Source of the DNA: Candidatus Woesearchaeota archaeon
GTDB lineage: Archaea > Nanobdellota > Nanobdellia > Woesearchaeales > UBA10216
Direction: 5' to 3'
DNA: 64,000 nucleotides
Assembly: GCA_016180065.1 (NCBI GenBank)
Contig: JACPBY010000013.1
Span: forward strand, 2,746-66,745
How positions within the stretch are numbered: the first letter of the stretch is position 1; each line of letters opens with the position of its first letter. Made by a program: the position numbers and the translations under genes. The notes under the pieces were generated by a model. It did no database searches. It saw only the letters and a list, made by a program, of their open reading frames with translations, and was not told where the DNA came from. Below, piece after piece: positions 30,791 through 63,779 of the stretch.

Positions 30791-31462
30791 ATGGTTCACA
30801 TTCCAATAGAAGGCCACATATTTTTCCTGATAGGCCTTGTGCTTGGTTTCCTGTCATCCATATGCGCACTTTACATAGCAGCCTATACATTCAGGGGCTA
30901 CCTTCTGACACGCAACAGGGCAAGCATGTTCTTTTCTGCTTCATTCTTCCTGTTGGGGTTCGGCCTTCTTGGCCGGACGCTGTTCAACTACATCAACGTT
31001 GCTCACCTCCCCGGACTGTTCAACTTTATACCCCAAGGACCGTTCCAGGATTTTCTCGCCATATCCTCAATTTTCCTTGTGAACTCAGGCTATATCATGC
31101 TGACAGCGCTCTTCTTCCGGATAACCAGCAAAAGGGTAACACTCCTGTTATTCGTGCTGCTCGCGCTGCTTACGGTTAGCAGCCAAAGCGCATACCTGAC
31201 AGGCCAGGTGCTTCCTGTCATCCTGCTAGCCTTTGTGCTAACCCACGCGATTGAGAATTTGTTCAAAAAAAAGACTGCCAACGCATTTCTGGTGTTGTCA
31301 TCATTCGCGCTGCTATTCGTGAGCGACATGTTCTTCCTTTTAATACCTGAATCAATTATCTTCTACTTTGTGGGCAACTCGCTGAGGCTGCTTGCATACC
31401 TGCAGTTGCTGGCAAATATATGGCTGGTGTTGAAACATGACATCAAAAAGGGCAAAGCCTGA
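30791..31462 (+). CDS. polytopic membrane protein (hypothetical)
   Basis: About 223 aa with about seven hydrophobic helices. Confidence 0.6.
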   Translation: MVHIPIEGHIFFLIGLVLGFLSSICALYIAAYTFRGYLLTRNRASMFFSASFFLLGFGLLGRTLFNYINVAHLPGLFNFIPQGPFQDFLAISSIFLVNSGYIMLTALFFRITSKRVTLLLFVLLALLTVSSQSAYLTGQVLPVILLAFVLTHAIENLFKKKTANAFLVLSSFALLFVSDMFFLLIPESIIFYFVGNSLRLLAYLQLLANIWLVLKHDIKKGKA

Positions 31463-31718
31463 CATAATATTTGACATCCTCTCAGCAATAAGCGAGAGCG
31501 AGGGCAGCATGAAGCCGACAAGGCTGCTCTACAAGTCAAACCTCTCATATGCCCGGCTTAAGCTCTACCTTGAAAGCCTTATAAAACAAGGGCTGCTTGC
31601 CGTGAAGAAGGAAGGCGACCGCAAGCTGATCTCTCTGACGCAGAAAGGCTATGACTATGTCGCAAAATACAGGCAGCTGAAAGAGTTCATCGAGTCGTTT
31701 GGGGTAACGGAAATTTAA
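31437..31718 (+). CDS. winged-helix DNA-binding protein (HTH_45-like)
   Basis: PDIIFDILSAISESEGSMKPTRLLYKSNLSYARLKLYLESLIKQGLL...LTQKGYDYV matches the archaeal wHTH pattern. Confidence 0.7.
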   Translation: MTSKRAKPDIIFDILSAISESEGSMKPTRLLYKSNLSYARLKLYLESLIKQGLLAVKKEGDRKLISLTQKGYDYVAKYRQLKEFIESFGVTEI

Positions 31719-31784: not shown

Positions 31785-32048
31785 GTGATAATTAAAGTTA
31801 AACTAGGTGGAAAAGGGCAGGTTGTCATACCAAAAATAGTCAGGGAAAGCATAGGGCTCAGGGAGAACTCCACTGCGCTGCTTGAGGTAAAAGAAAAAAA
31901 GGTAGAGATAAGGCCCCTTTCTGCAGAGGACATAGTGGAAAAAGCCAGTGAAATGGCAAGGAAATATGGCGGAAATGTGTCAAAGTGGATATTCGGAGAC
32001 AGATTGTACGAGGAGGAATTTGGCAAAAGCTACGGCGATGGCAAATGA
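31785..32048 (+). CDS. vapB: AbrB/SpoVT-type antitoxin (VapB)
   Basis: GGKGQVVIPKIVRESIGLRENSTALLEV. Its stop overlaps the vapC ATG (ATGA). Confidence 0.8.
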   Translation: MIIKVKLGGKGQVVIPKIVRESIGLRENSTALLEVKEKKVEIRPLSAEDIVEKASEMARKYGGNVSKWIFGDRLYEEEFGKSYGDGK

Positions 32049-32180
32049 TTTACTTAGACGCAAACTTCTTTGTTTTCTGCTTTTTTGACCAGTCAGAGAA
32101 GGGCAAGAATTCCCGCTCATTGCTACAGCAGATAGTTGATGGCAAGGAAGCGGCAACTTCGGCTTTGGCACTGGATGAGG

Positions 32181-32189
32181 TTATGTGGG
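32181..32189 (+). repeat. target-site duplication, left copy (TTATGTGGG)
   Basis: A 9-bp direct repeat flanks the IS. It is identical to 33194-33202. Confidence 0.8.
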
Positions 32190-33193
32190 GATACCGTCTA
32201 CTAAACGAATGATTAATATATGAGTGAATCTATTTCTATGCAATCAGAGGTGTGACCTATGGATTGCATATACTGTAAGTCAAAGAATGTTGTTGAAAAT
32301 GGCAAAAGATACAGGAAAGTAAGAGTAAAACAGAGTTATCTCTGTAACAATTGCCGAAGGCAATTCGTGGAACCTGATGGTTTTGAAAGAATGCGACATT
32401 TACCAGAAGATGTTGTTCGAGCTGTTCACTTGCATGATGATGGTCTTTCATTGTCAAAGGTGCAAAACCAGATGTGGCAGCATGATGGAGTAAAGGTTAC
32501 ACGTTGGACAATTGCAGAATGGCATACAAAGTTTGGTGTTTTTTTAAAATCCGCTAAGCGAGCAAGTCACGCCAACCATAAAGGGGCGAGTTCATTATGA
32601 CGAAAAATACGTAACTGTTGATGAAAAACATTGTTACGATTTGAATGCTGCCGACAGCAAAACCAAATACATTCTGGCTCATTCACTCGTCGAGAAAAGA
32701 ACATTACCTGCGTGCGTTGATTTCCTGAGACAAATCAAGAAATCGTGTTATAAACAAATTTTGGAAGTGTTTCTCAAAGAGAAACACAAGAAGGCAAAAG
32801 ACCGAAGGCTCATGACATTTGTTTGTGATGGCTACTGGCCTTACAGACTGGCATTCAACAAGCTCTTTTACGGAGTTGCCAAACTAGTGTTTGGAGTGCC
32901 AATCGCTAACAAAAAACACGGTGTGAAGCACAACAACAATCCAATCGAGCGGTACAATCAAAACCTTGATGACCGCATTAAAGTGATGAGAAACTTCAAG
33001 AGTTTCTCATGTGCGAAATCTTTTTTTGACCTTCACCGGATTTGCAGGAATTTCATCAATCCCTGCATGCAGCTTAAAGGTAAAACACCCGCAGAAGCCG
33101 CAGAAATAAAGCTTCCACTTGGAAGAAACAAGTTACTGGCTTTAATCAGGCATATGGCTAAACAGAAGCATCATTCGTCAAGATGACAATGTC
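32190..33193 (+). mobile_element. IS6-like insertion sequence (1004 bp)
   Basis: Imperfect terminal inverted repeats of about 25 bp: GATACCGTCTACTAAACGAATGAT, versus GACATTGTCATCTTGACGAATGAT for the reverse complement of the right end. It is flanked by an 8-9 bp direct repeat and carries a Zn-finger plus DDE transposase. Confidence 0.85.
32259..33186 (+). CDS. IS6-like transposase in two frames
   Basis: ORF1 (32259-32600) has an N-terminal Zn finger, CIYCKS...CNNC. ORF2 (open from 32548, to 33186) has DEKYV, CDGYWPY and NNNPIERYN DDE-type motifs. The frame change is +1, and the overlap contains T7A4 at 32539-32549, so this is either a frameshift pseudogene or a programmed slip. Confidence 0.72.
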
Positions 33194-33202
33194 TTATGTG
33201 GG
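33194..33202 (+). repeat. target-site duplication, right copy (TTATGTGGG)
   Basis: Identical to 32181-32189 and immediately outside the right IS end. Confidence 0.8.
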
Positions 33203-33510
33203 CAACAGTTAAAAACGGCAGAAAAGAAGCCCTGCGCCAGCTAATCGAGGGAATCTACGCCATACCGAATCTGGCAATAAGGGAAGTGGGCTCAGAGATT
33301 CCCCTCAGCGCGTTGAATTTTATTGACGAATCCGGCCTTAAGCCAAGGGACGCCTTTCATGCCGCCATCATGCGCAGCTTAGGACTCACTGAGATAGTCA
33401 GCGACGACCATGATTTTGACAAAGTAAAAAGGATTAGACGAATTGAGCTTTAAGCAACCGCAGAAAAGCAGCCTACTTCTTTGCCTCCTTCGTTTCCCCC
33501 TCATTTTTTT

Positions 33511-33565
33511 TTGGAGCAAAGTATTTATACTCTGCGAGAAATAAAGCCCAGCGATGAAAGAGGAA
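33511..33565 (+). repeat. 55-bp cassette-start block, copy 1
   Basis: TTGGAGCAAAGTATTTATACTCTGCGAGAAATAAAGCCCAGCGATGAAAGAGGAA matches 35152-35206 at 54/55. It contains a TATA-like ATTTATA about 27 nt before the ATG, which suggests a leaderless transcript. Confidence 0.9.
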
Positions 33566-33928
33566 ATTAAGCTATGGTGGAGCTATGCGGAAGCTGACCT
33601 GAAAACAGCAGAGCATGCAGCTGAAGCAGGTGACTATTACGCAGCGGGTTTCTGGGCGCAACAGGCAGTTGAGAAAGGGCTGAAGGCGCTTGTCCTCTAC
33701 AAAGGTTCTGAATTCAGGAAAATTCATGATTTGGAAACGCTTGCAAAAAAAGTTGATGCAACTGCTGCCATAATCGATAAATGCAAGAAAATAAGCCCTG
33801 CCTACACAATAGCGAGATATCCTGATGCTGCTCTAAAACCAGCAAAGTCAGTAACTAAAGAAGAAGCTGAAGAACTTGTTAAGCTTGCAAAGGAGGTTTT
33901 GGAATGGGCAAAAAACCAAATGAGATAG
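33554..33928 (+). CDS. HEPN domain protein (cassette 1)
   Basis: 124 aa. WWSYAEADLKTAEHA...AVEKGLKALVL...HDLETLAKKV...RYPD fits the HEPN pattern. It overlaps the MNT gene. Confidence 0.85.
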   Translation: MKEEIKLWWSYAEADLKTAEHAAEAGDYYAAGFWAQQAVEKGLKALVLYKGSEFRKIHDLETLAKKVDATAAIIDKCKKISPAYTIARYPDAALKPAKSVTKEEAEELVKLAKEVLEWAKNQMR

Positions 33929-34224
33929 TTAAGGAACTGAGAAAATTCAAGCTGAAGCTGATAAAGCACATTGCAGTCCAGAAGATGATACTTTTTGGCT
34001 CAACAGCCCGCGGGCAAGCGGGGAAAGACAGTGATATAGACCTCATATTTGTATCGCCCCAATTTAAGGGCGTATCTCCCCTGGGAAGAGCTTATGCTGT
34101 TTCAAAGCAATGGGACCTTGACTACCCCAAAGACTTCCTGTGCTACACCCCAGCTGAATTCCGAAAAATGGAAAAGCTCAGCATCGTGGTCAGGGAAGCA
34201 ATCAGGGAAGGCATAGAAATATGA
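33904..34224 (+). CDS. minimal nucleotidyltransferase (MNT, cassette 1)
   Basis: 106 aa with the LFGSTARGQAGKDSDIDLIFV signature. Confidence 0.88.
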   Translation: MGKKPNEIVKELRKFKLKLIKHIAVQKMILFGSTARGQAGKDSDIDLIFVSPQFKGVSPLGRAYAVSKQWDLDYPKDFLCYTPAEFRKMEKLSIVVREAIREGIEI

Positions 34225-34237
34225 ACTTTGTTTCTGT
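34141..34237 (+). repeat. 97-bp cassette-junction block, copy 1
   Basis: 97/97 identical to 35785-35881. It covers the last 28 MNT codons, the stop, and ATGAACTTTGTTTCTGT of the next ORF. Confidence 0.95.
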
Positions 34238-34245
34238 CCTCTAAA

Positions 34246-35064
34246 ATGGGCATTGGGACCAAACTGAAAATAGGGGTTGTGGTAGCGCTTGTGGGTTTAG
34301 CTGCGCTTGTAGACAATACCCAAGTTTCACTTCCTCCGAGCCACATCACTGCTAGCGGTTTCCCGTCTTATATTCAGGATGCCCGTGGCTTAGCGCTCCA
34401 GCCGTGCCTGGGCGTTAACCCTGATGGTTCAGGCAAGGCCGACAAGTTTTGCATTCTTAGTGACGGTGTCAATTACGACCTTACTGCTCCGATAAGTTTT
34501 CCGGACAACTTCCCTGCTGAATTCTTTTACTGGACTGCTGATTCGTATCTCGCTTTTTCGGAAGGCGGAAGTGCGCTGATGGTTCTCGCACTTGAAGGCG
34601 CGTTTGCCGGAGAAGAAGCAGTTGCTGGTGAGCAGTCGGTCTTTGCCAGGGTAAGATTCAGACTTGATGTTCCTGAAACCGGAACCTATACAGTTGCTTT
34701 TCCTTTCGGCACAAGAACATATGTTGTTGATGCCCTTGAGCCAGGCCCTGAGATAAGGGACACGTCAGACATAGGATGCTTTGCATTAGGAACTGGGGTT
34801 TTGTCATGCGACCCGAATGTTCCTCTAGGCAACACCAACAACTTTGGGCTTGCGCGGTTAGGCCTGTTAGGGCCATTCCTCAGAGCAGTGAGCCCGGCAC
34901 CTCCAGCAGGATACCTGGGCAATCCAGCAGTTCTCCAGACTGTTACTGGAGGCACAAACGGAAACACCTTCAGGGTTCAGGGGCCATCTGCAGCTTCAAC
35001 TGCTGAAACAAACATGTTCGCGGTTTCAGGCAAAATCGCCACGAGACACCATCCCTACAAATAA
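34246..35064 (+). CDS. secreted or membrane-anchored hypothetical protein (cassette 1 cargo)
   Basis: 272 aa from ATG 34246, with the N-terminal hydrophobic segment KIGVVVALVGLAALV. The conserved coupled start at 34221 is cut off after 7 codons in this copy. Confidence 0.6.
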   Translation: MGIGTKLKIGVVVALVGLAALVDNTQVSLPPSHITASGFPSYIQDARGLALQPCLGVNPDGSGKADKFCILSDGVNYDLTAPISFPDNFPAEFFYWTADSYLAFSEGGSALMVLALEGAFAGEEAVAGEQSVFARVRFRLDVPETGTYTVAFPFGTRTYVVDALEPGPEIRDTSDIGCFALGTGVLSCDPNVPLGNTNNFGLARLGLLGPFLRAVSPAPPAGYLGNPAVLQTVTGGTNGNTFRVQGPSAASTAETNMFAVSGKIATRHHPYK

Positions 35065-35069
35065 CCCGC

Positions 35070-35150
35070 CTATTCCTGCTCCTTCCCTTCCCTCACTTTA
35101 ATAACGATAACCTTGCCCTGACTCTCAATGAACGTTACCGTGCTGCTTAT
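35070..35150 (-). pseudogene. relic of the aIF5A 3' end
   Basis: The minus-strand translation ...KISSTVTFIESQGKVIVIKVREGKEQE* parallels the true aIF5A C-terminus ...VVTFIEIQGKIIVIEIREGKEQE*. The first 27 nt are identical to 36779-36805. Confidence 0.78.
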
Positions 35151-35151
35151 C

Positions 35152-35206
35152 TTGGAGCAAAATATTTATACTCTGCGAGAAATAAAGCCCAGCGATGAAA
35201 GAGGAA
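35152..35206 (+). repeat. 55-bp cassette-start block, copy 2
   Basis: 54/55 identical to 33511-33565. Confidence 0.9.
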
Positions 35207-35572
35207 GTAAAAATATGGTGGGAGCAAGCCAAACGAGATTTACTCAGTGCAGAGCATGCGCTGCAGTCAGAGGATTATTACCAAGTGGCGTATTTGGCGC
35301 ACCAAACCGTTGAAAAAGCCCTAAAGGCTTTATTGCTTGACAGAAAAGGAGGTTTCTCTAAAGGTCATGATTTGCCATATTATGCAAAACAGTTAGATGT
35401 TCCAAGCAGTATAATGAGCGCTTGCGAGCAACTCAATCCTGTGTATTTAAAATCACGTTACCCTGACGTTGCCGGAACTTCGCCTTTTGAGCTTTTTTCT
35501 CGTTCTGATGCAATTAAAGCAGTCACAGCTGCAAAGGAGGTAATCGAATGGGCAAAACACCTGTTCAAGTGA
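35195..35572 (+). CDS. HEPN domain protein (cassette 2)
   Basis: 125 aa. WWEQAKRDLLSAEHA...TVEKALKALLL...HDLPYYAKQL...RYPD. By eye it is roughly 40-45% identical to the cassette 1 HEPN. Confidence 0.85.
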   Translation: MKEEVKIWWEQAKRDLLSAEHALQSEDYYQVAYLAHQTVEKALKALLLDRKGGFSKGHDLPYYAKQLDVPSSIMSACEQLNPVYLKSRYPDVAGTSPFELFSRSDAIKAVTAAKEVIEWAKHLFK

Positions 35573-35868
35573 CAAAGGACTTGAAGCTTTTTAAGGAGCG
35601 TGTAACTAGAAAAATCAAGGTTAGCAAGCTGCTGCTGTTTGGCTCAATGGCACGCGGCACCAACCGCAAAGATAGCGATGTTGATGTTATACTTGTTTCG
35701 CCAAATTTTAAGAAGCAGAGATGGATTAAAAGAGCCCCTCCCTTATACAAATTTTGGCCGTACAACCGCCCGTTTGAATTATTGTGCTACACCCCAGCTG
35801 AATTCCGAAAAATGGAAAAGCTCAGCATCGTGGTCAGGGAAGCAATCAGGGAAGGCATAGAAATATGA
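35548..35868 (+). CDS. minimal nucleotidyltransferase (MNT, cassette 2)
   Basis: 106 aa with LFGSMARGTNRKDSDVDVILV. The last 28 aa are identical to the cassette 1 MNT. Confidence 0.88.
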   Translation: MGKTPVQVTKDLKLFKERVTRKIKVSKLLLFGSMARGTNRKDSDVDVILVSPNFKKQRWIKRAPPLYKFWPYNRPFELLCYTPAEFRKMEKLSIVVREAIREGIEI

Positions 35869-35881
35869 ACTTTGTTTCTGT
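35785..35881 (+). repeat. 97-bp cassette-junction block, copy 2
   Basis: 97/97 identical to 34141-34237. Confidence 0.95.
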
Positions 35882-36698
35882 TAAAATAACAATGAGGAAC
35901 GTTGCAACAGCAGCAGGATTGGCAGTCGCTTTAGCAGTTGGCGTATTGGCGCGTCCTAGCTTGGAAACGCTTGTGAACACAGTCAACCCCCCTTCCCAAA
36001 CTGCTTTTGAGCAGCTTTACCTTGTGAATCCCAGAGATGTTACTAAAGTCATAGTAGCGCCTCCTTTGCCTAAAGGTGTAAATTATTTTTTATCTACAAT
36101 AAGAGAAGACGCATTTATAACAAGTAATATCCACCCTAAATGGCTGGGTAGTGATTTTGCAAAATTATCTGATGATGCCTTAATAACCTCGCCTGCAGTT
36201 AGCCGCGGGGGTAGCGGTTTAGTAGAGCGAATGCGTCATCCATTTTCAAAAAGGGAGTACCGGTTATTCGGTGGCAGTATAGGCTATTTATGTTCTGAAG
36301 GAATTGCATATACCCCGGCTGGTTCGGTTAGTTACGGTTGTAATCTGAAGGGCTTTACAACTTTGGTCCTACCCTACAATTACGTTGACGATAACCAAAA
36401 AAATCCTTTCCCAGTCATATTCTCACCAATAATAACCCTTCCCCGGGGTGTCTCCTTACCAGAGCATACGTTGACGATACATACAGGAAATAGTAAATTT
36501 ACTATTTATGTGCCGGCAGTAAGTGCTGTTGATCGAGAATCAGTAGTTATTTTTGTCGTTGCAAAAGACGGCTCCACTTACTACTCAAAGCATGGCCTTC
36601 CTTTTAAGTTGGGGCAGGAACTGAGCGGCAATGGAGGTATGACATCCTTTAACCTTGACCCCTCAATGCTGGCAAGAGCAGCGCCAAACTGCAACTAA
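35865..36698 (+). CDS. secreted or membrane-anchored hypothetical protein (cassette 2 cargo)
   Basis: 277 aa. Its start overlaps the MNT stop (ATGA). It has the N-terminal hydrophobic segment AAGLAVALAVGVLA and no visible similarity to the cassette 1 cargo. Confidence 0.6.
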   Translation: MNFVSVKITMRNVATAAGLAVALAVGVLARPSLETLVNTVNPPSQTAFEQLYLVNPRDVTKVIVAPPLPKGVNYFLSTIREDAFITSNIHPKWLGSDFAKLSDDALITSPAVSRGGSGLVERMRHPFSKREYRLFGGSIGYLCSEGIAYTPAGSVSYGCNLKGFTTLVLPYNYVDDNQKNPFPVIFSPIITLPRGVSLPEHTLTIHTGNSKFTIYVPAVSAVDRESVVIFVVAKDGSTYYSKHGLPFKLGQELSGNGGMTSFNLDPSMLARAAPNCN

Positions 36699-36781
36699 AA
36701 TAGATAAGCGCTCTTGTTTTCATCTTCCGTAGAAGCCGGTTTTTATTGGAAATATAAACTACCCGGACCCGATAAACACGC

Positions 36782-37204
36782 CTATTCCTGCTCCTTCCCT
36801 TCCCTTATCTCAATCACGATAATCTTTCCCTGAATTTCAATGAACGTAACCACGCTTCCTTCACTTATCTGCTCAAACTGTTCCTTTGTGACTGCCGCAT
36901 TCAGCGTCTCGTAGCTCATAAGGTCCATTATCTGGATTTGCTCCGGCGGTATTTTAGCCACAACCTGCCCCTTCTTGTTGACTATTTCAATGTCCTCAAG
37001 GTTCTCATGGTGGCCAAGCGTAAGCGTTTCTGCCCTGCCTGAGAAGATGCCCTGTACGGTCAGCTTTGTCTTGGAGTGCATGTGGGTTCCGGTTGTGACC
37101 CTTTCCTTTTGTGTGACCTTGGCAGGCTCACCCCTGTTCATTATGCACGTTCCAACCTTTGCGTCTGCAACCTTAATCATAGGCTTTGCGGACAAAGCAG
37201 CCAT
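36782..37204 (-). CDS. translation initiation factor 5A (aIF5A), Thr at the expected hypusine position
   Basis: 140 aa. It aligns with archaeal aIF5A (GEPAKV...TTGTHMHSKTKLTVQGIFSG...IQIMDLMSYETL), but the canonical (S/T)GKHG(S/H)AK loop reads TGTHMHSK. Confidence 0.88.
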   Translation of the reverse strand: MAALSAKPMIKVADAKVGTCIMNRGEPAKVTQKERVTTGTHMHSKTKLTVQGIFSGRAETLTLGHHENLEDIEIVNKKGQVVAKIPPEQIQIMDLMSYETLNAAVTKEQFEQISEGSVVTFIEIQGKIIVIEIREGKEQE

Positions 37205-38027: not shown

Positions 38028-38840
38028 TTACAGGCTGTCCAGCGGGCTCTTCACTTTCCTTAATTCTTCCGTCGACACTTTTGTGTAAATCTGCGTTGTC
38101 TGGAGGTTTGAATGCCCGAGCAGCTCCTGTATCTTCCTTATGCTTTCGCCGCTTTCAAGAAGGTGGGTTGCGAAGCTGTGCCTTAATGTGTGAGGGCTGA
38201 CTGTTTTGGCCAGCCCTGCCCTTCTTGCTGATGTTGCAACGATTTTCTGTATGTTCCTGGCAGATAAAGGCTTCCCTGACTTGTTCGTAAAAAGGTGTTC
38301 TGTGTTTTTGCCATTCATGTGCTGTTTCAGGTGTTCAATAATGCCTTCTGAGAGTATGAACAGCCTGTCCTTGCCGCCTTTGCCATCCCTTACCCAGCCT
38401 ATCTTCTGGTCAAGCTCCAGGTTCTTTGTGGTGAGGTTGCAGCATTCGCTCACTCTCAGGCCGGAGGAGTAAAGCATCATAAGGATGAGCCTGCTTTTTG
38501 CAGTTGGTGCAGAGTCTATGAGCCTTTTAACCTCCTCTCTTGCAAGCACAGTAGGCAGCTTCTTTTGTATCTTTGGCGTTTTCAGGGTTACAATGCTTTT
38601 CTTCAGGACCCCGTCATAGTAGAACTTGAGCGCTGCCCTTACCAGTGCAACAGTGGCTGAATTCTTCCTTTTGTCCCCTATCAGGTTCGCAAGGTATGCC
38701 TTGATGTCATCTTCTGTAACAGCATCAGGCGCTTTGTTTGCAAACGAGAGGAACTTGCCGTTGTAGAAAAGGTAGCTTTTAACCGTCCTTTCGCTGAAGC
38801 CACGAAGCTTAAGCTCTGTTTCAAGCTGTTCAAGAACCAT
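38028..38840 (-). CDS. xerA: tyrosine recombinase (XerA/XerC/XerD type)
   Basis: 270 aa. N-terminal SAM-like core-binding domain, catalytic ARNIQK...R, HTLRHSFATHLLESG and LLGHSNLQTTQIYTKV. Confidence 0.9.
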   Translation of the reverse strand: MVLEQLETELKLRGFSERTVKSYLFYNGKFLSFANKAPDAVTEDDIKAYLANLIGDKRKNSATVALVRAALKFYYDGVLKKSIVTLKTPKIQKKLPTVLAREEVKRLIDSAPTAKSRLILMMLYSSGLRVSECCNLTTKNLELDQKIGWVRDGKGGKDRLFILSEGIIEHLKQHMNGKNTEHLFTNKSGKPLSARNIQKIVATSARRAGLAKTVSPHTLRHSFATHLLESGESIRKIQELLGHSNLQTTQIYTKVSTEELRKVKSPLDSL

Positions 38841-40246: not shown

Positions 40247-40699
40247 ATGAGGTTTATTAGATGTGCAAACTGTGGAAAAGAGGATGAACACCACGCAAAA
40301 GGCCTGTGCTTTAACTGCTACAGGAAACTGGTTTGGCAACCAAAGAAAAAGGAATGCCCTTCTTGCAAACAGGTTAAGGTTATTCACGCAAAAGGCTACT
40401 GCGAGTACTGCTATAACAAAATCTTCTATACCGAATACTCCCGCTTGGCATCTAGGAAGCAGTATTCCGGCATAACAAAGGAAGTCTTTGACAAGCTGCC
40501 AAAAAAGTGCCTTATCTGTGGCTTTGATAAGATATTTGATGTTCACCACCTGGTTGCCAAGTCAAAAGGCGGCAGCCATACGCTTGATAATCTCATAGTG
40601 CTTTGTCCTAATCACCACAAGATGCTGCATCATGCGGACTACAGGCAGGAAATGCTGGCTCTAATAAGTGAAAGAATGGACAAAAGCACTCATAACTAA
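40247..40699 (+). CDS. HNH endonuclease with two N-terminal CxxC...CxxC zinc knuckles
   Basis: CANCGK...HAKGLCFNCY, CPSCKQ...HAKGYCEYCY, then DVHHLVAKSKGGSHTLDNLIVLCPNHHKMLHH. Confidence 0.85.
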   Translation: MRFIRCANCGKEDEHHAKGLCFNCYRKLVWQPKKKECPSCKQVKVIHAKGYCEYCYNKIFYTEYSRLASRKQYSGITKEVFDKLPKKCLICGFDKIFDVHHLVAKSKGGSHTLDNLIVLCPNHHKMLHHADYRQEMLALISERMDKSTHN

Positions 40700-60564: not shown

Positions 60565-62859
60565 TCAGCCGGGCTGCACGCTGAACCTGAGCAGCCTGTT
60601 GGACCACTTGACCTCCCCAACCCAAAGGAAACTGCCATCAAAGGAAACAAAAGAAGGCATGAACAGGCCGCTCTTTGTGCTTGACGGGTAGTTGCTCTGG
60701 AAATCTTTCTGCCCAATGACAATATCCGGCTCGCCAAGCTCGCTTTCCGGGAACTTTGTCCAGACAAGTACCCTGTTGTTGCCCACATCGCCCACAAACA
60801 GGCTGTCCTTGTAAATAAAAACTCCCTGAGGCATTGCGAGGCGGGCATGTTGAGGCAGGCCAAACCAGTCCTGGCTGCCTGTTGAGTGGTCTGTAATTTT
60901 TATCTGGAAGTCAGCAGGCTGGCCGTTTGCCACGGGAATGCTTTTCCAGACCAGAATCCTGTTATTGGCAGAATCTGCAACCACGAGCCTTTTGCCATCA
61001 GTTGATATTTGATATGGAGAATCAAGCTGGTTCAGCCCCTCACCTGCGGAAGTTGAGTCAAAATCAGGCTGTCCAAGGACCAAGTCAGCAGGCGTCTGGT
61101 TGCCTGCAGGAATGCTTTTCCAGACCAAAATGCGGTTATTGCCCCAGTCGCTTGCAAACAAGCGCTTGCCATCTGACGCAACACTGACCGGATTGTTTAG
61201 CTCTGCCCTGCCTTTGCCGTTCCTCCACCACTCAAGGCCGGTTGACGTGCCCAGTATGACATCAGGAAGTTTGTTATCCACAGCAGGCACTTTATTCCAA
61301 ATCAGGATTCTTCCAGCTTCCCTGTTGGCAGCGATAAGCCTTTCGCCTGAAATTATGGCCTGCTGCACGCCTCCGAGCCATGTCGCGTTGATAACCACAT
61401 CCGCCTCTGCCTTGCTTTCATCAGGCAAGTGGTTGTAAATATATATTCTCCTCCCGAAATCGCAGCCTATGGCCAGCTGTTCACCATTCGAGAACACTCC
61501 TGGCCCGCCGCAGCTGTTCCTTGCCATGAATATGTTAACGCCGGAGCCGGGCTGGCCCAAAACAACATCAGCCTTGACGCCAGGCTCTGTTGGAATCTTG
61601 TTGAAGATAAGCACCCTGTTGTTGTTCGTGTCAGCAACAATCAGCCTTGTGCCGTCACTTGCAACCCCAAAGGGACCGGACATGCCATCCGCATCTGAAG
61701 TTGGGCGCGTTTGCCCTATTCTCAAATCCTCTTTCTCGCCATGTTCGGGAAAGCTGTTCCAGATGTAAACCTGATGGGCGCTTGAAGCGAACAATCTGTT
61801 GTCTTTTATCGCTACCCCCATTATGTCATTGTAAGGCTCGTCCTCAACCCGCTTCACTATGATGCTGAAGCCTGCAGGCTGTCCATTTTTAGCCGGAAAG
61901 CCGTTCCACACAAAAGCGCGCTTTGCGCTGTAATCGCCCACTATCAAGTGCTTTCCATCAAAAGCTACAGCCCTTGGCGTTCCCAAATCAGCCATCGGAT
62001 TTTCAGGCTGCTGCCCAAACCTTGCGGAAAAATTCTCATAGCCCAGCACCAAATCAGCAGGCTGGTTGTTTTCTGTCGGGAAGGAATTCCAGACCAGAAC
62101 AGAGCCGTCTACAGTGCTTGTCACGATGACCTTCTGCCCATCTGTCCAGATGTCCCAGGGCCAGTAAATCCTTTTCTCAGGGTCTCGTTCATTCTTCAGG
62201 TCAAAATAGTTTGGCCATCTGCCAAAATCATCAGCCCCAAGAACTATGTCTGCAGGCTGGCCGTTCCTTGTCGGGAAGGAATTCCAGACCAGAACGCGAT
62301 CATTGAAGCCGTCCCCTACCAGCAGCCTTGTCCCGTCTGTCGCAACAGCCATAGGCCAGTTCATCCTGCTGGCGCCAAGCCCCGGCGTGTTGGAATAAAA
62401 ATCATCCTGCCCCAGCACAAGGTCAGGCAGATGGTTACTTTCTCCTGGTATTTCGTTCCAGACAAGCACACGATTGTTCCACGTGTCTGAAACAATCAGC
62501 CGTTTGCCATCGGTTGCAACTTTTCCCGGATGATTCAGCACAAGCGGCCCGCCGCTCTCGCCAAAGCCTGTTGCATAGAGGACAACGCCAGCATCCTGCC
62601 CTGTCCTGAACCAGCCGGTTGGCTTTTCAGCCACAAACTTGTAAGGCTTTGCCTCAACCTTTACCTCCAGCTGCTGGAACAGCTGATGTTGCGACTGCTG
62701 CGGTGGTTCCTGAAGCGCTTCCTGCTGCAGCTGTTGAGGTGGAATTTGCGGTGGTGATGGTGGCTGTTGTCCTGGCTGCACCGGAGTGCATGACGCTAAG
62801 ATGGCCAAGCTTAAAACGAGAACCGCTAAAACAACTCCAAGCCCTGCCTCTTTTTCCAT
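60565..62859 (-). CDS. secreted lipoprotein with 12 NHL-like beta-propeller repeats
   Basis: Signal and lipobox LAVLVLSLAILASC, a P/Q-rich linker, then 12 repeats of the form D..NNRVLVW..(I/F)P...GQPADLVLGQ.DF (for example WNNRVLVWNEIP, GNNRILVWKSIP, GNNRVLVWTKFP). Confidence 0.8.
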   Translation of the reverse strand: MEKEAGLGVVLAVLVLSLAILASCTPVQPGQQPPSPPQIPPQQLQQEALQEPPQQSQHQLFQQLEVKVEAKPYKFVAEKPTGWFRTGQDAGVVLYATGFGESGGPLVLNHPGKVATDGKRLIVSDTWNNRVLVWNEIPGESNHLPDLVLGQDDFYSNTPGLGASRMNWPMAVATDGTRLLVGDGFNDRVLVWNSFPTRNGQPADIVLGADDFGRWPNYFDLKNERDPEKRIYWPWDIWTDGQKVIVTSTVDGSVLVWNSFPTENNQPADLVLGYENFSARFGQQPENPMADLGTPRAVAFDGKHLIVGDYSAKRAFVWNGFPAKNGQPAGFSIIVKRVEDEPYNDIMGVAIKDNRLFASSAHQVYIWNSFPEHGEKEDLRIGQTRPTSDADGMSGPFGVASDGTRLIVADTNNNRVLIFNKIPTEPGVKADVVLGQPGSGVNIFMARNSCGGPGVFSNGEQLAIGCDFGRRIYIYNHLPDESKAEADVVINATWLGGVQQAIISGERLIAANREAGRILIWNKVPAVDNKLPDVILGTSTGLEWWRNGKGRAELNNPVSVASDGKRLFASDWGNNRILVWKSIPAGNQTPADLVLGQPDFDSTSAGEGLNQLDSPYQISTDGKRLVVADSANNRILVWKSIPVANGQPADFQIKITDHSTGSQDWFGLPQHARLAMPQGVFIYKDSLFVGDVGNNRVLVWTKFPESELGEPDIVIGQKDFQSNYPSSTKSGLFMPSFVSFDGSFLWVGEVKWSNRLLRFSVQPG

Positions 62860-63647: not shown

Positions 63648-63779
63648 GCCCCGTTCGTTCAGTCCGGTCAAGGACACGGCCCTTTCGAATGACCCATCTC
63701 GCCGCAGCGAGTGTGGCTTGACCAAAAAACGACGTCGTAAGGAAAGGCCGGGACGCGGGTTCAAATCCCGCACGGGGCA
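63648..63779 (+). tRNA. tRNA-Glu (anticodon UUC) with a 57-nt canonical 37/38 intron
   Basis: Acceptor GCCCCGU/ACGGGGC, D-arm GUUC-AGUCCGGUCAA-GGAC, anticodon stem CGGCC/GGCCG, loop CUUUCG|A after removing 63688-63744. BHB: H is CUUU/AAGG, the bulges are CGA and AAA, and h' is AUGAC/GUCGU. T-arm GCGGG-UUCAAAU-CCCGC, 4-nt variable loop. Confidence 0.88.

Follow-up and report, generated by a model that had tools for sequence, protein, structure and literature searches.

Two tandem HEPN-MNT units with short identical blocks beside aIF5A in a Woesearchaeota genome: a probable case of duplication, core replacement and short-tract gene conversion

The DNA considered here is a 64,000-nucleotide (nt) stretch (hereafter the window) of contig JACPBY010000013.1 in assembly GCA_016180065.1, chromosomal sequence from a groundwater Candidatus Woesearchaeota metagenome-assembled genome (MAG), and our subject is a pair of HEPN-MNT units, resembling toxin-antitoxin (TA) operons, that lie head to tail at 33511-35146 and 35152-36858. 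As an initial annotation of the sequence had described, down to the sizes of the reading frames, both units have the same architecture on the forward strand: a TATA-like element (TTTATA, at 33524-33529 in unit 1 and 35165-35170 in unit 2) located 24 nt 5' of the ATG of a HEPN gene, the HEPN gene itself (HEPN1, 33554-33928, 124 amino acids (aa), Pfam PF05168, E = 6e-30; HEPN2, 35195-35572, 125 aa, PF05168, E = 6e-25), an MNT (minimal nucleotidyltransferase) gene that overlaps it by 25 nt (MNT1, 33904-34224, 106 aa, NTP_transf_2 PF01909, E = 1e-11; MNT2, 35548-35868, 106 aa, PF01909, E = 2.5e-11), and an open reading frame (ORF) with an N-terminal hydrophobic segment, for which the term cargo is retained. 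Cargo 1 (34246-35064, 272 aa) combines a signal or anchor segment with an uncharacterised beta-rich secreted domain, and cargo 2 (35865-36698, alternative start at 35892) is a putative orphan secreted or anchored protein that reads as 277 aa in the fused form present in the window. In unit 1 a 7-codon mini-ORF (34221-34244; MNFVSVL and a stop) precedes the restart of the cargo frame at 34246, just as annotated; it is probably not functional and is a product of the ATA-TGA stop context. Convergent with cargo 2, an intact aIF5A gene occupies 36782-37204 on the reverse strand (partial matches to NF003076, TIGR00037 and PF21485). Rfam and tRNA scans detected no RNA gene in the two-unit region.

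Three blocks of sequence recur between the units. Block A (33511-33565 and 35152-35206), which comprises the promoter, the 24-nt spacer and the first four HEPN codons, is identical at 54 of its 55 positions, in agreement with the initial annotation, and contains an exact core of 44 nt. Block B (34140-34237 and 35784-35881) comprises the last 28 MNT codons, the stop codon and 13 nt of T-rich, terminator-like post-stop sequence, and in unit 2 its right edge forms an abrupt junction with cargo 2; it had been described as 97 identical base pairs, of which the perfect identity stands while the length is corrected to 98 (98/98). Block C (35063-35144 and 36775-36856; 69/82 identical, or 84%) pairs the 3' end of aIF5A with a relic of it at the end of unit 1 (35063-35146, reverse strand). 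The relic, whose presence had been recognised from the outset, consists of 24 codons and a stop rather than 26 codons, and its frame is kept: it translates to STVTFIESQGKVIVIKVREGKEQE and a stop against SVVTFIEIQGKIIVIEIREGKEQE and a stop in aIF5A, being 16% diverged. A 27-nt identical run within block C, at first set apart, is only marginal relative to a random placement of the 13 mismatches (P = 0.045) and was dropped as a separate block. Blocks A and B each have two copies in the window, where the chance expectation is 0, and block C is likewise a two-copy family.

Outside of these blocks the units are far less alike. The cores share approximately 52% nucleotide identity with synonymous sites saturated, and the proteins are 44% identical for HEPN1 and HEPN2 and 58% for MNT1 and MNT2, the latter value combining 44% in the first 78 aa with 28/28 in the C-terminal part, in line with the initial by-eye estimate of 40-50% between the blocks. 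Among codons that specify the same residue in both units, 36 of 77 (47%) differ outside the blocks versus 1 of 29 inside block B (28 codons and the stop), and because silent codons behave so differently in the two settings, the identity of the blocks points to recent copying rather than to constraint at the protein level. Sequence of three age classes is present at the locus: the two near-identical blocks A and B (98-100%), the aIF5A relic (84%) and the cores (52%). As had been argued, such a pattern cannot stem from a single duplication followed by uniform drift.

Both units consist of adjacent PF05168 and PF01909 genes with the 25-nt overlap, as do related loci, and as such fall into the two-gene HEPN-MNT TA class reviewed by Makarova et al. 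2009 (PMC2701414), whose characterised members are the type VII HepT/MntA systems (PMC7641770, PMC4621449). The likeness to the class resides in an overlapping two-gene operon of a small HEPN protein and a minimal nucleotidyltransferase in which GS-x(n)-DxD is intact, and in a multi-copy, patchy occurrence among other TA pairs (VapBC, MazEF, PIN). The nucleotidyltransferase motif hG[GS]-x(9-13)-Dh[DE]h is preserved in both MNT proteins (FGSTARGQAGKDSDIDL and FGSMARGTNRKDSDVDV), with residues G32, S33, D44 and D46 invariant, and the invariant residues of the HEPN family are E40, K41, K44, H58, R88 and Y89. Unlike HepT/MntA, the locus has HEPN proteins of PF05168 with no conserved Rx4-6H motif (R-x(4-6)-H is absent from HEPN1 and is found at residues 14-21 of HEPN2, but in a column that is not conserved, HEPN1 having A14), its gene order is HEPN then MNT, and its MNT falls below the NCBIfam cut-off for MntA (NF047752 MntA_antitoxin, 31.5 bits versus 60, with only residues 21-54 matching). 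Because of the missing motif and the low MntA score we do not file the locus as HepT/MntA, while its sequence places it within the broader HEPN-MNT class; HEPN toxicity and MNT AMPylation in this subfamily would be expected by analogy.

The two TA cores do not appear to be recent duplicates of each other. HEPN1 is 84% identical to the HEPN protein of its closest relative, a locus in another genome designated L122, and 73% identical to that of a second locus, L123, whereas HEPN2 ranks only 11th of 49 among the relatives of HEPN1 and has a best outside identity of 43-44%; nothing more than about 50% identical to HEPN2, or to the N-terminal part of MNT2, turned up in any collection. MNT1 is 68-83% identical to proteins P0049-P0056 from other metagenomes, and over its first 78 aa the identity is 69-87% with P0049-P0058 and 45-57% with upwards of 30 MNT proteins from Joint Genome Institute (JGI) metagenomes, as against only 44% with MNT2. 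Both MNT1 and HEPN1 have numerous relatives elsewhere that are closer to them than their counterparts in unit 2. The end of MNT2 encoded by block B (KLSIVVREAIREGIEI) bears the C-terminal signature M(K/E)KLS(I/V)VV...EGIEI, which among 41 relatives is restricted to proteins with an MNT1-type N-terminal domain. Since this signature occurs only in the MNT1 clade while the N-terminal part of MNT2 is divergent, MNT2 is a chimera, with its first 78 aa from a divergent lineage and its last 28 aa from the MNT1 clade. On its left, block B ends at the LCYTP motif, the stretch on which the family agrees most closely; of the MNT regions overall, the C-terminus is the best conserved, at about 60-70% protein identity. 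The direct donor of block B may have been either unit 1 or another MNT1-clade allele. In an exact-protein look-up MNT1, MNT2, HEPN2 and cargo 1 were on record only in NCBI, and HEPN2 only from the MAG. If the chimeric MNT2 neutralises HEPN2, or cross-neutralises HEPN1, it would reveal which part of an MNT protein carries partner specificity.

Comparison with loci in other genomes places the blocks in context. The HEPN1-MNT1 module is approximately 82-84% identical in nucleotide sequence to that of L122 throughout, and the homology of L122 and L123 to unit 1 runs from the HEPN ATG to 34235, 11 nt past the MNT stop, with a post-stop TTTGTTTCT motif common to all three. Promoter geometry is likewise the same in L122, L123 and a third locus, L124, with TTATTTATA at -32 to -24 of the HEPN ATG; the 24-nt spacer between TATA box and ATG is unrelated among these three loci, yet is 100% identical between the two units. 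Segments of L122 and L123 orthologous to the blocks differ from them at 24-42% of positions (58-76% identical). The surroundings of these modules are diverse: upstream of that of L122 is a gene with an end 48% identical to an Sso10a-like ORF of the window (31437-31718), and after the module comes an unrelated gene that has a TATA box of its own, while L124 has one HEPN-MNT pair before a membrane protease-like gene. On L123 (Logan SRR22388048, 1-3096; DPANN-like), a MazEF locus whose DNA matches window 45455-46019 at 71.5% identity lies with a truncated HEPN and two HEPN-MNT pairs, which are in tandem but divergent. Two short blocks, each 95% identical, are common to these pairs, one of 22 nt at the promoter and one of 19 nt in the T-rich post-stop sequence, and a 109-nt relic of an MNT 3' end (84%) is found 1.7 kb away. 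Short shared ends around divergent HEPN-MNT cores are thus not unique to the window, which fits modules that recombine at their ends.

The cargo proteins, as first proposed, have no similarity that either BLASTP (E = 0.84) or profile comparison (hhalign probability 0.3%) detects, and each has a single N-terminal hydrophobic segment (hydropathy peaks at residues 9-23 in cargo 1 and 13-27 in cargo 2). Cargo 1 (NCBI MBI2144422, locus tag HYU17_04715, on a 68.8-kb contig) has 39 homologues, of which those with a source name are bacterial and the five that were read carry signal peptides, and is best regarded as a member of an uncharacterised secreted-protein family; its AlphaFold2 model (predicted local distance difference test score, pLDDT, 78) matched no PDB structure at E <= 0.001. 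When cargo 2 was searched against 1.84 billion representative proteins, it recovered only itself and four weak, repeat-like hits to giant proteins (two cadherin-type), which we treated as unreliable, and its single-sequence model was unusable (pLDDT 35). The link between TA pair and cargo is local. A same-strand ORF with a hydrophobic N-terminus lies downstream in 7 of the 85 related HEPN-MNT loci with enough downstream sequence, and the closest homologue of cargo 1 (locus L130) is preceded by 274 nt of AT-rich non-coding DNA with no MNT gene.

Variants of the locus were found in Logan assemblies, whose contigs are built at k = 31 with singleton k-mers dropped, such that neighbouring contigs overlap by 30 nt (PMC12424806). 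The read sets in question have nearby run numbers and may belong to a Northern California groundwater study (PMC7906910). Cargo 2, aIF5A and the next gene are 99.8-100% identical to the window on six distinct contigs from six read sets, one of these contigs being also on record for two further samples; aIF5A itself is 100% identical on all six, and cargo 2 adjoins aIF5A in every haplotype seen. HEPN2 and MNT2 are not on record in the read sets carrying cargo 2, and cargo 2 occurs in other read sets in lengths of 275 and 274 aa, the 277-aa form being found in the MAG only. Three contigs (L001, L115 and L121) reach the 5' end of cargo 2 and, with the two further samples, represent at least five read sets (SRR12113419 together with the two further samples recorded for its contig; SRR12113431; and SRR12113425). 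All three leave the window sequence exactly at 35880/35881, which is the right edge of block B, and to this extent the earlier suggestion is upheld, recombination at block edges being both real and recent. The variant junction reads ...(AAGTTTAAATT)CTGCTGCTGTTTTCTCCCT[G/C]TAAAATGGGCT, then TTAAAATAACAATGAGG, is homologous to the unit-1 spacer (..TTTGTTTCTGTCCTCTAAAATGGGCATT; 19/26), and gives cargo 2 a start at ATGGGC (MGFKITMRNV...) in the same context as that of cargo 1, with a TTTAAAT box at -32 to -26 of this start. Of 41 MNT relatives, none has the kind of end that the reading frame of the variant would call for. Because the variant shares both the spacer homology and the start context with unit 1, the native cargo start is ATGGGC in both units, and the MNFVSV-KITMRNV fusion in the window is the derived state. 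The ATG overlapping the MNT stop is then a by-product of ATA-TGA; L122 has ATA-TAA, and no ATG, at the same place. The initial annotation had taken this ATG for a conserved, ATGA-coupled cargo start and had located a recombination scar in unit 1, of which the former cannot be maintained in view of the variants and the latter is reversed, the scar lying in unit 2.

The ends of these contigs carry some information of their own. Both L001 and L121 begin exactly 30 nt (k-1) before the G/C polymorphism; L115 has the same exact 30-nt lead, in its case to the base at which cargo 2 (ATGGGC-T) and cargo 1 (ATGGGC-A) first differ. A branch of the assembly graph at those bases would give such contig starts, and we infer that in these samples a second gene, in the simplest case cargo 1, likewise lies behind a copy of the variant junction block. 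Each haplotype would then have its own junction block common to both units, with three differing right-hand ends, as is characteristic of concerted evolution. A further contig, L114 (SRR12113383), joins window 34937-35206 to 33566-34203 with 0 mismatches, in the order cargo 1, relic, block A (with the unit-2 single-nucleotide polymorphism), HEPN1 and MNT1. Recombination of one block A copy with the other would yield just this junction, and L114 could represent an excised circle or an unequal crossover.

Short-tract gene conversion is a general route in prokaryotes to the concerted evolution of tandem or dispersed paralogues. Typical of it are identical tracts, silent and non-coding sites included, in otherwise diverged paralogues, tract phylogenies that conflict with the remainder of the gene, and tract ends that vary by strain; at this locus, tracts of 98/98 and 54/55 stand in cores of 52%, and the phylogeny of the block B tract differs from that of the rest of MNT2. 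The locus departs from the usual situation in that the partners are only about 52% identical outside of the patches, such that conversion would have to start from very short islands of similarity, and in that one tract end is an illegitimate join. On balance we consider it probable, though well short of assured, that the locus was shaped by an old segmental duplication and then by replacement of core sequence, and that short tracts have recently passed from one tandem unit to the other by gene conversion. The blocks are best read as footprints of concerted evolution at a recombination-prone TA locus, not as parts of a dedicated machine.

In this history each HEPN-MNT pair would constitute a self-contained TA operon, consisting of a TATA box, a probably leaderless ATG, HEPN, MNT and a T-rich tract. 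A segmental duplication of approximately 1.65 kb, with its right breakpoint 24-26 codons inside aIF5A, would have generated the tandem layout and the relic, and the anatomy records it directly: the relic ends at 35146, the repeat starts at 35147 and block A follows at 35152. Since the relic is only 16% diverged and in frame, the duplication would be much younger than the split between the cores, and since the cores greatly predate the relic, unrelated alleles would have replaced at least one TA core, together with at least one cargo body, after the duplication, a step to which the age classes point. Despite the replacement of the cargo bodies, the cargo spacer and ATGGGC start stayed homologous. 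Recent conversion would then have copied the 55-nt promoter and 5' end and the 98-nt MNT 3' end with its post-stop sequence into the other unit, the 98-nt tract being apparently of MNT1-clade origin, and was probably seeded by prior islands of similarity (the TATA box, the MKEE codons, the LCYTP motif and the T-rich tract); the population variants lend support to such a conversion. This last event would have turned MNT2 into a chimeric antitoxin and would have given cargo 2, by fusion, the ATG overlapping the MNT stop.

Several observations weigh against this history. The HEPN2-MNT2 core and both junctions of block B with cargo are known from the MAG contig alone, and the presence of the variant junction in both units is deduced solely from the positions at which contigs end. 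The L114 junction could equally have arisen where a k = 31 assembly graph of a thinly covered sample passed through the 44-nt repeat, and positions 909-927 of the contig are a Nextera adapter (CTGTCTCTTATACACATCT), a sign that coverage was low and reads were left untrimmed. In unit 2, microhomology between the right edge of block B and the variant amounts to just 1-4 nt, and the edge implies a loss of 11-16 nt; a simple two-sided conversion does not account for this by itself and would have to be supplemented by an illegitimate join or a subsequent deletion. Block B is 76% identical to L122 and the remainder of unit 1 84%, so that a third MNT1-clade allele could have supplied both copies. Last, the module homology of L122 and L123 ceases at 34235, coincident with the block B edge, which leaves the insertion of a whole module with a shared end as an alternative. 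Should the history of duplication, replacement and conversion be correct, TA modules in small DPANN genomes would behave as promoter-to-terminator units that occur in tandem, swap short patches and make chimeric antitoxins, altering the start of a neighbouring secreted-protein gene, with strains otherwise 99.8-100% identical differing at the TA locus. The locus reveals no new defence or secretion system, and is rather a good example of TA-module micro-evolution and strain-level mosaicism.

It had been proposed initially that the locus swaps secreted cargo, each travelling with its own TA pair. In its most defensible form this becomes a standing recombination scaffold, a population-level exchange site at which blocks A, B and C serve as homology arms that let co-occurring Woesearchaeota strains exchange or amplify TA cores and secreted bodies, possibly via circles, with surface proteins varied in company with an addictive TA pair. 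Such a scaffold would account for the layout, in which a conserved promoter, a conserved stretch of MNT 3' end, spacer and ATGGGC start, and a conserved aIF5A end surround unrelated inserts, for strain polymorphism exactly at a block edge, for the missing record of HEPN2 and MNT2 in read sets that carry cargo 2, and for the L114 junction, through which unit 1 might be excised as a circle by way of the 44-55-nt repeat; if true, swaps of the antitoxin C-terminus would re-wire which MNT protects against which HEPN. We nevertheless consider it unlikely. The blocks did not recur elsewhere as the initial annotation anticipated: blastn found no copy of A or B among the MNT relatives retrieved from scans of 185,579 species-representative genomes (the source MAG not included) and of JGI metagenomes, a search entered with MNT C-terminal peptides in which the best relatives were 40-58% identical, and the exact cores of A and B and the variant junction had 0 matches in IMG/VR. 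Cargo 2 stays beside aIF5A in 6/6 independent contigs, just two cargo types were seen, and the linkage of TA pair to secreted protein is missing from L122, L123, L124 and the closest cargo 1 homologue and is limited to the 7 of 85 related loci mentioned above. Furthermore, the units have no recombinase linked to them: XerA, which lies nearby, is of the ordinary Xer type. The claim of a previously undescribed HEPN-MNT-cargo system accordingly gives way to that of a known family and a known process. A blastn search of the whole region against plasmids returned no match.

Two array systems offer partial parallels. In the orphan toxin-immunity cassette arrays found downstream of rhs and cdiA genes, tandem toxin and protector modules share short junctions that enable parts to be replaced by recombination. 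The present units resemble them in their tandem toxin and cognate-protector modules and their short conserved junction sequences, but they have no large delivery gene with an exchanged tip, they are complete operons, and the conserved block lies in the antitoxin-like gene. Integron arrays, archaeal ones included, are similar in having short units of the same orientation with near-identical blocks and, here, a tyrosine recombinase 1.2 kb away, and TA genes and unknown secreted proteins are typical cassette cargo; the units of this locus, however, have their own promoters, and one junction is a housekeeping-gene relic, which indicates duplication rather than site-specific insertion. No attC-like folds were found at the four junction regions (single-strand DNA fold z-scores of -0.8 to +0.7) and no inverted repeats at the junctions, and the recombinase ORF (38028-38840) scores 264 against a cut-off of 220 for NF040815 (XerA) and 219 against a cut-off of 265 for TIGR02249 (integron integrase), the latter match being split into two stretches. 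An integron array was ruled out on the grounds of the missing attC fold, the XerA-type recombinase and the housekeeping-gene relic. The recombinase gene lies beyond aIF5A and an uncharacterised 142-aa ORF, and the unit borders showed no recognisable dif-like or attC-like site.

The second alternative dispenses with conversion, and supposes that a mobile HEPN-MNT module already equipped with an MNT1-type 3' end was inserted directly upstream of cargo 2, the blocks being nothing more than the promoter and T-rich terminator ends typical of such modules. The coincidence of the block B edge with the extent of L122/L123 homology is what such an insertion would leave behind, the junction with cargo 2 is abrupt and looks illegitimate, and L123 offers an instance of module fragments together with tandem modules. 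Yet the ends of foreign modules are 58-76% identical to the blocks, as opposed to the 98-100% observed between the units with spacer and synonymous sites included, MNT2 changes clade in mid-gene, and the aIF5A relic directly before block A would go unexplained. We regard an insertion of this kind as doubtful, and return to conversion between tandem units as the preferred account of the blocks.

An assembly artefact, in which the MAG contig was mis-joined at repeats and block B of unit 2, or the whole of unit 2, is unreal, seems more improbable still. It draws on the occurrence of HEPN2, MNT2 and the 277-aa form of cargo 2 in the MAG only, on the at least five independent read sets with another junction, and on the fact that exact repeats of 44 nt and 98 nt are classic mis-join sites. 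The join of block B to cargo 2, however, shares at most 4 nt with the variant, and a de Bruijn chimera cannot produce it because there is no k-mer in common with the variant allele; the contig has no Ns at the locus and the join is in frame. Moreover, L114 reproduces both the cargo 1-relic-block A order and the block A-HEPN1-MNT1-block B order at 100%, and a relic at 84% rather than 100% argues that the tandem layout is no collapsed repeat. Purifying selection alone, for instance on an autoregulatory operator plus promoter and on an essential MNT C-terminal helix plus terminator, for which the conserved TATA position and post-stop T-rich motif and the well-conserved MNT C-terminus might be invoked, is scarcely credible and was ruled out by silent sites (28 of 29 block B codons identical, against 47% differing elsewhere) and by the cross-genome divergence of both the blocks and the TATA-ATG spacer.

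The neighbourhood of the two units mixes housekeeping genes (those for isoleucyl-tRNA synthetase (IleRS), L21e, Rpb4, DUF655, aIF5A and XerA) with many TA genes, including two solitary PIN genes, MazEF and a VapBC pair interrupted by an insertion sequence (IS). The last of these, a VapB (AbrB-type, 31785-32048) and VapC (PIN) pair, extends over 31785-33453; its PIN gene is divided into 31985-32212 and 33196-33453 by an IS of about 990 base pairs that has imperfect 18-nt terminal inverted repeats (32196-32213 and 33170-33187) and carries a zinc-finger ORF (32259-32600) and a DDE_Tnp_IS240 ORF (32641-33186). A small HNH endonuclease with a double zinc ribbon is encoded in the same TA-rich stretch at 40247-40699. 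In aIF5A, which scores below the curated cut-offs (70 versus 138 bits), residues 39-42 (37079-37090, reverse strand) read G-T-H-M; the usual archaeal hypusination loop is G-K-H-G, and a by-eye comparison with a Methanocaldococcus sequence suggests that its modified lysine is here replaced by threonine. Elsewhere in the window, four to five diverged copies of a 60-72-nt repeat at 60908-62469, spaced by 174-195 nt with one gap of 786-969 nt, probably belong to a gene for a repeat-domain protein. A tRNA-Ile of 86 nt (50321-50406) was found by ARAGORN and not by Rfam at its gathering score, and a tRNA of 132 nt (63648-63779), reported by Rfam and not by ARAGORN, is probably intron-containing.

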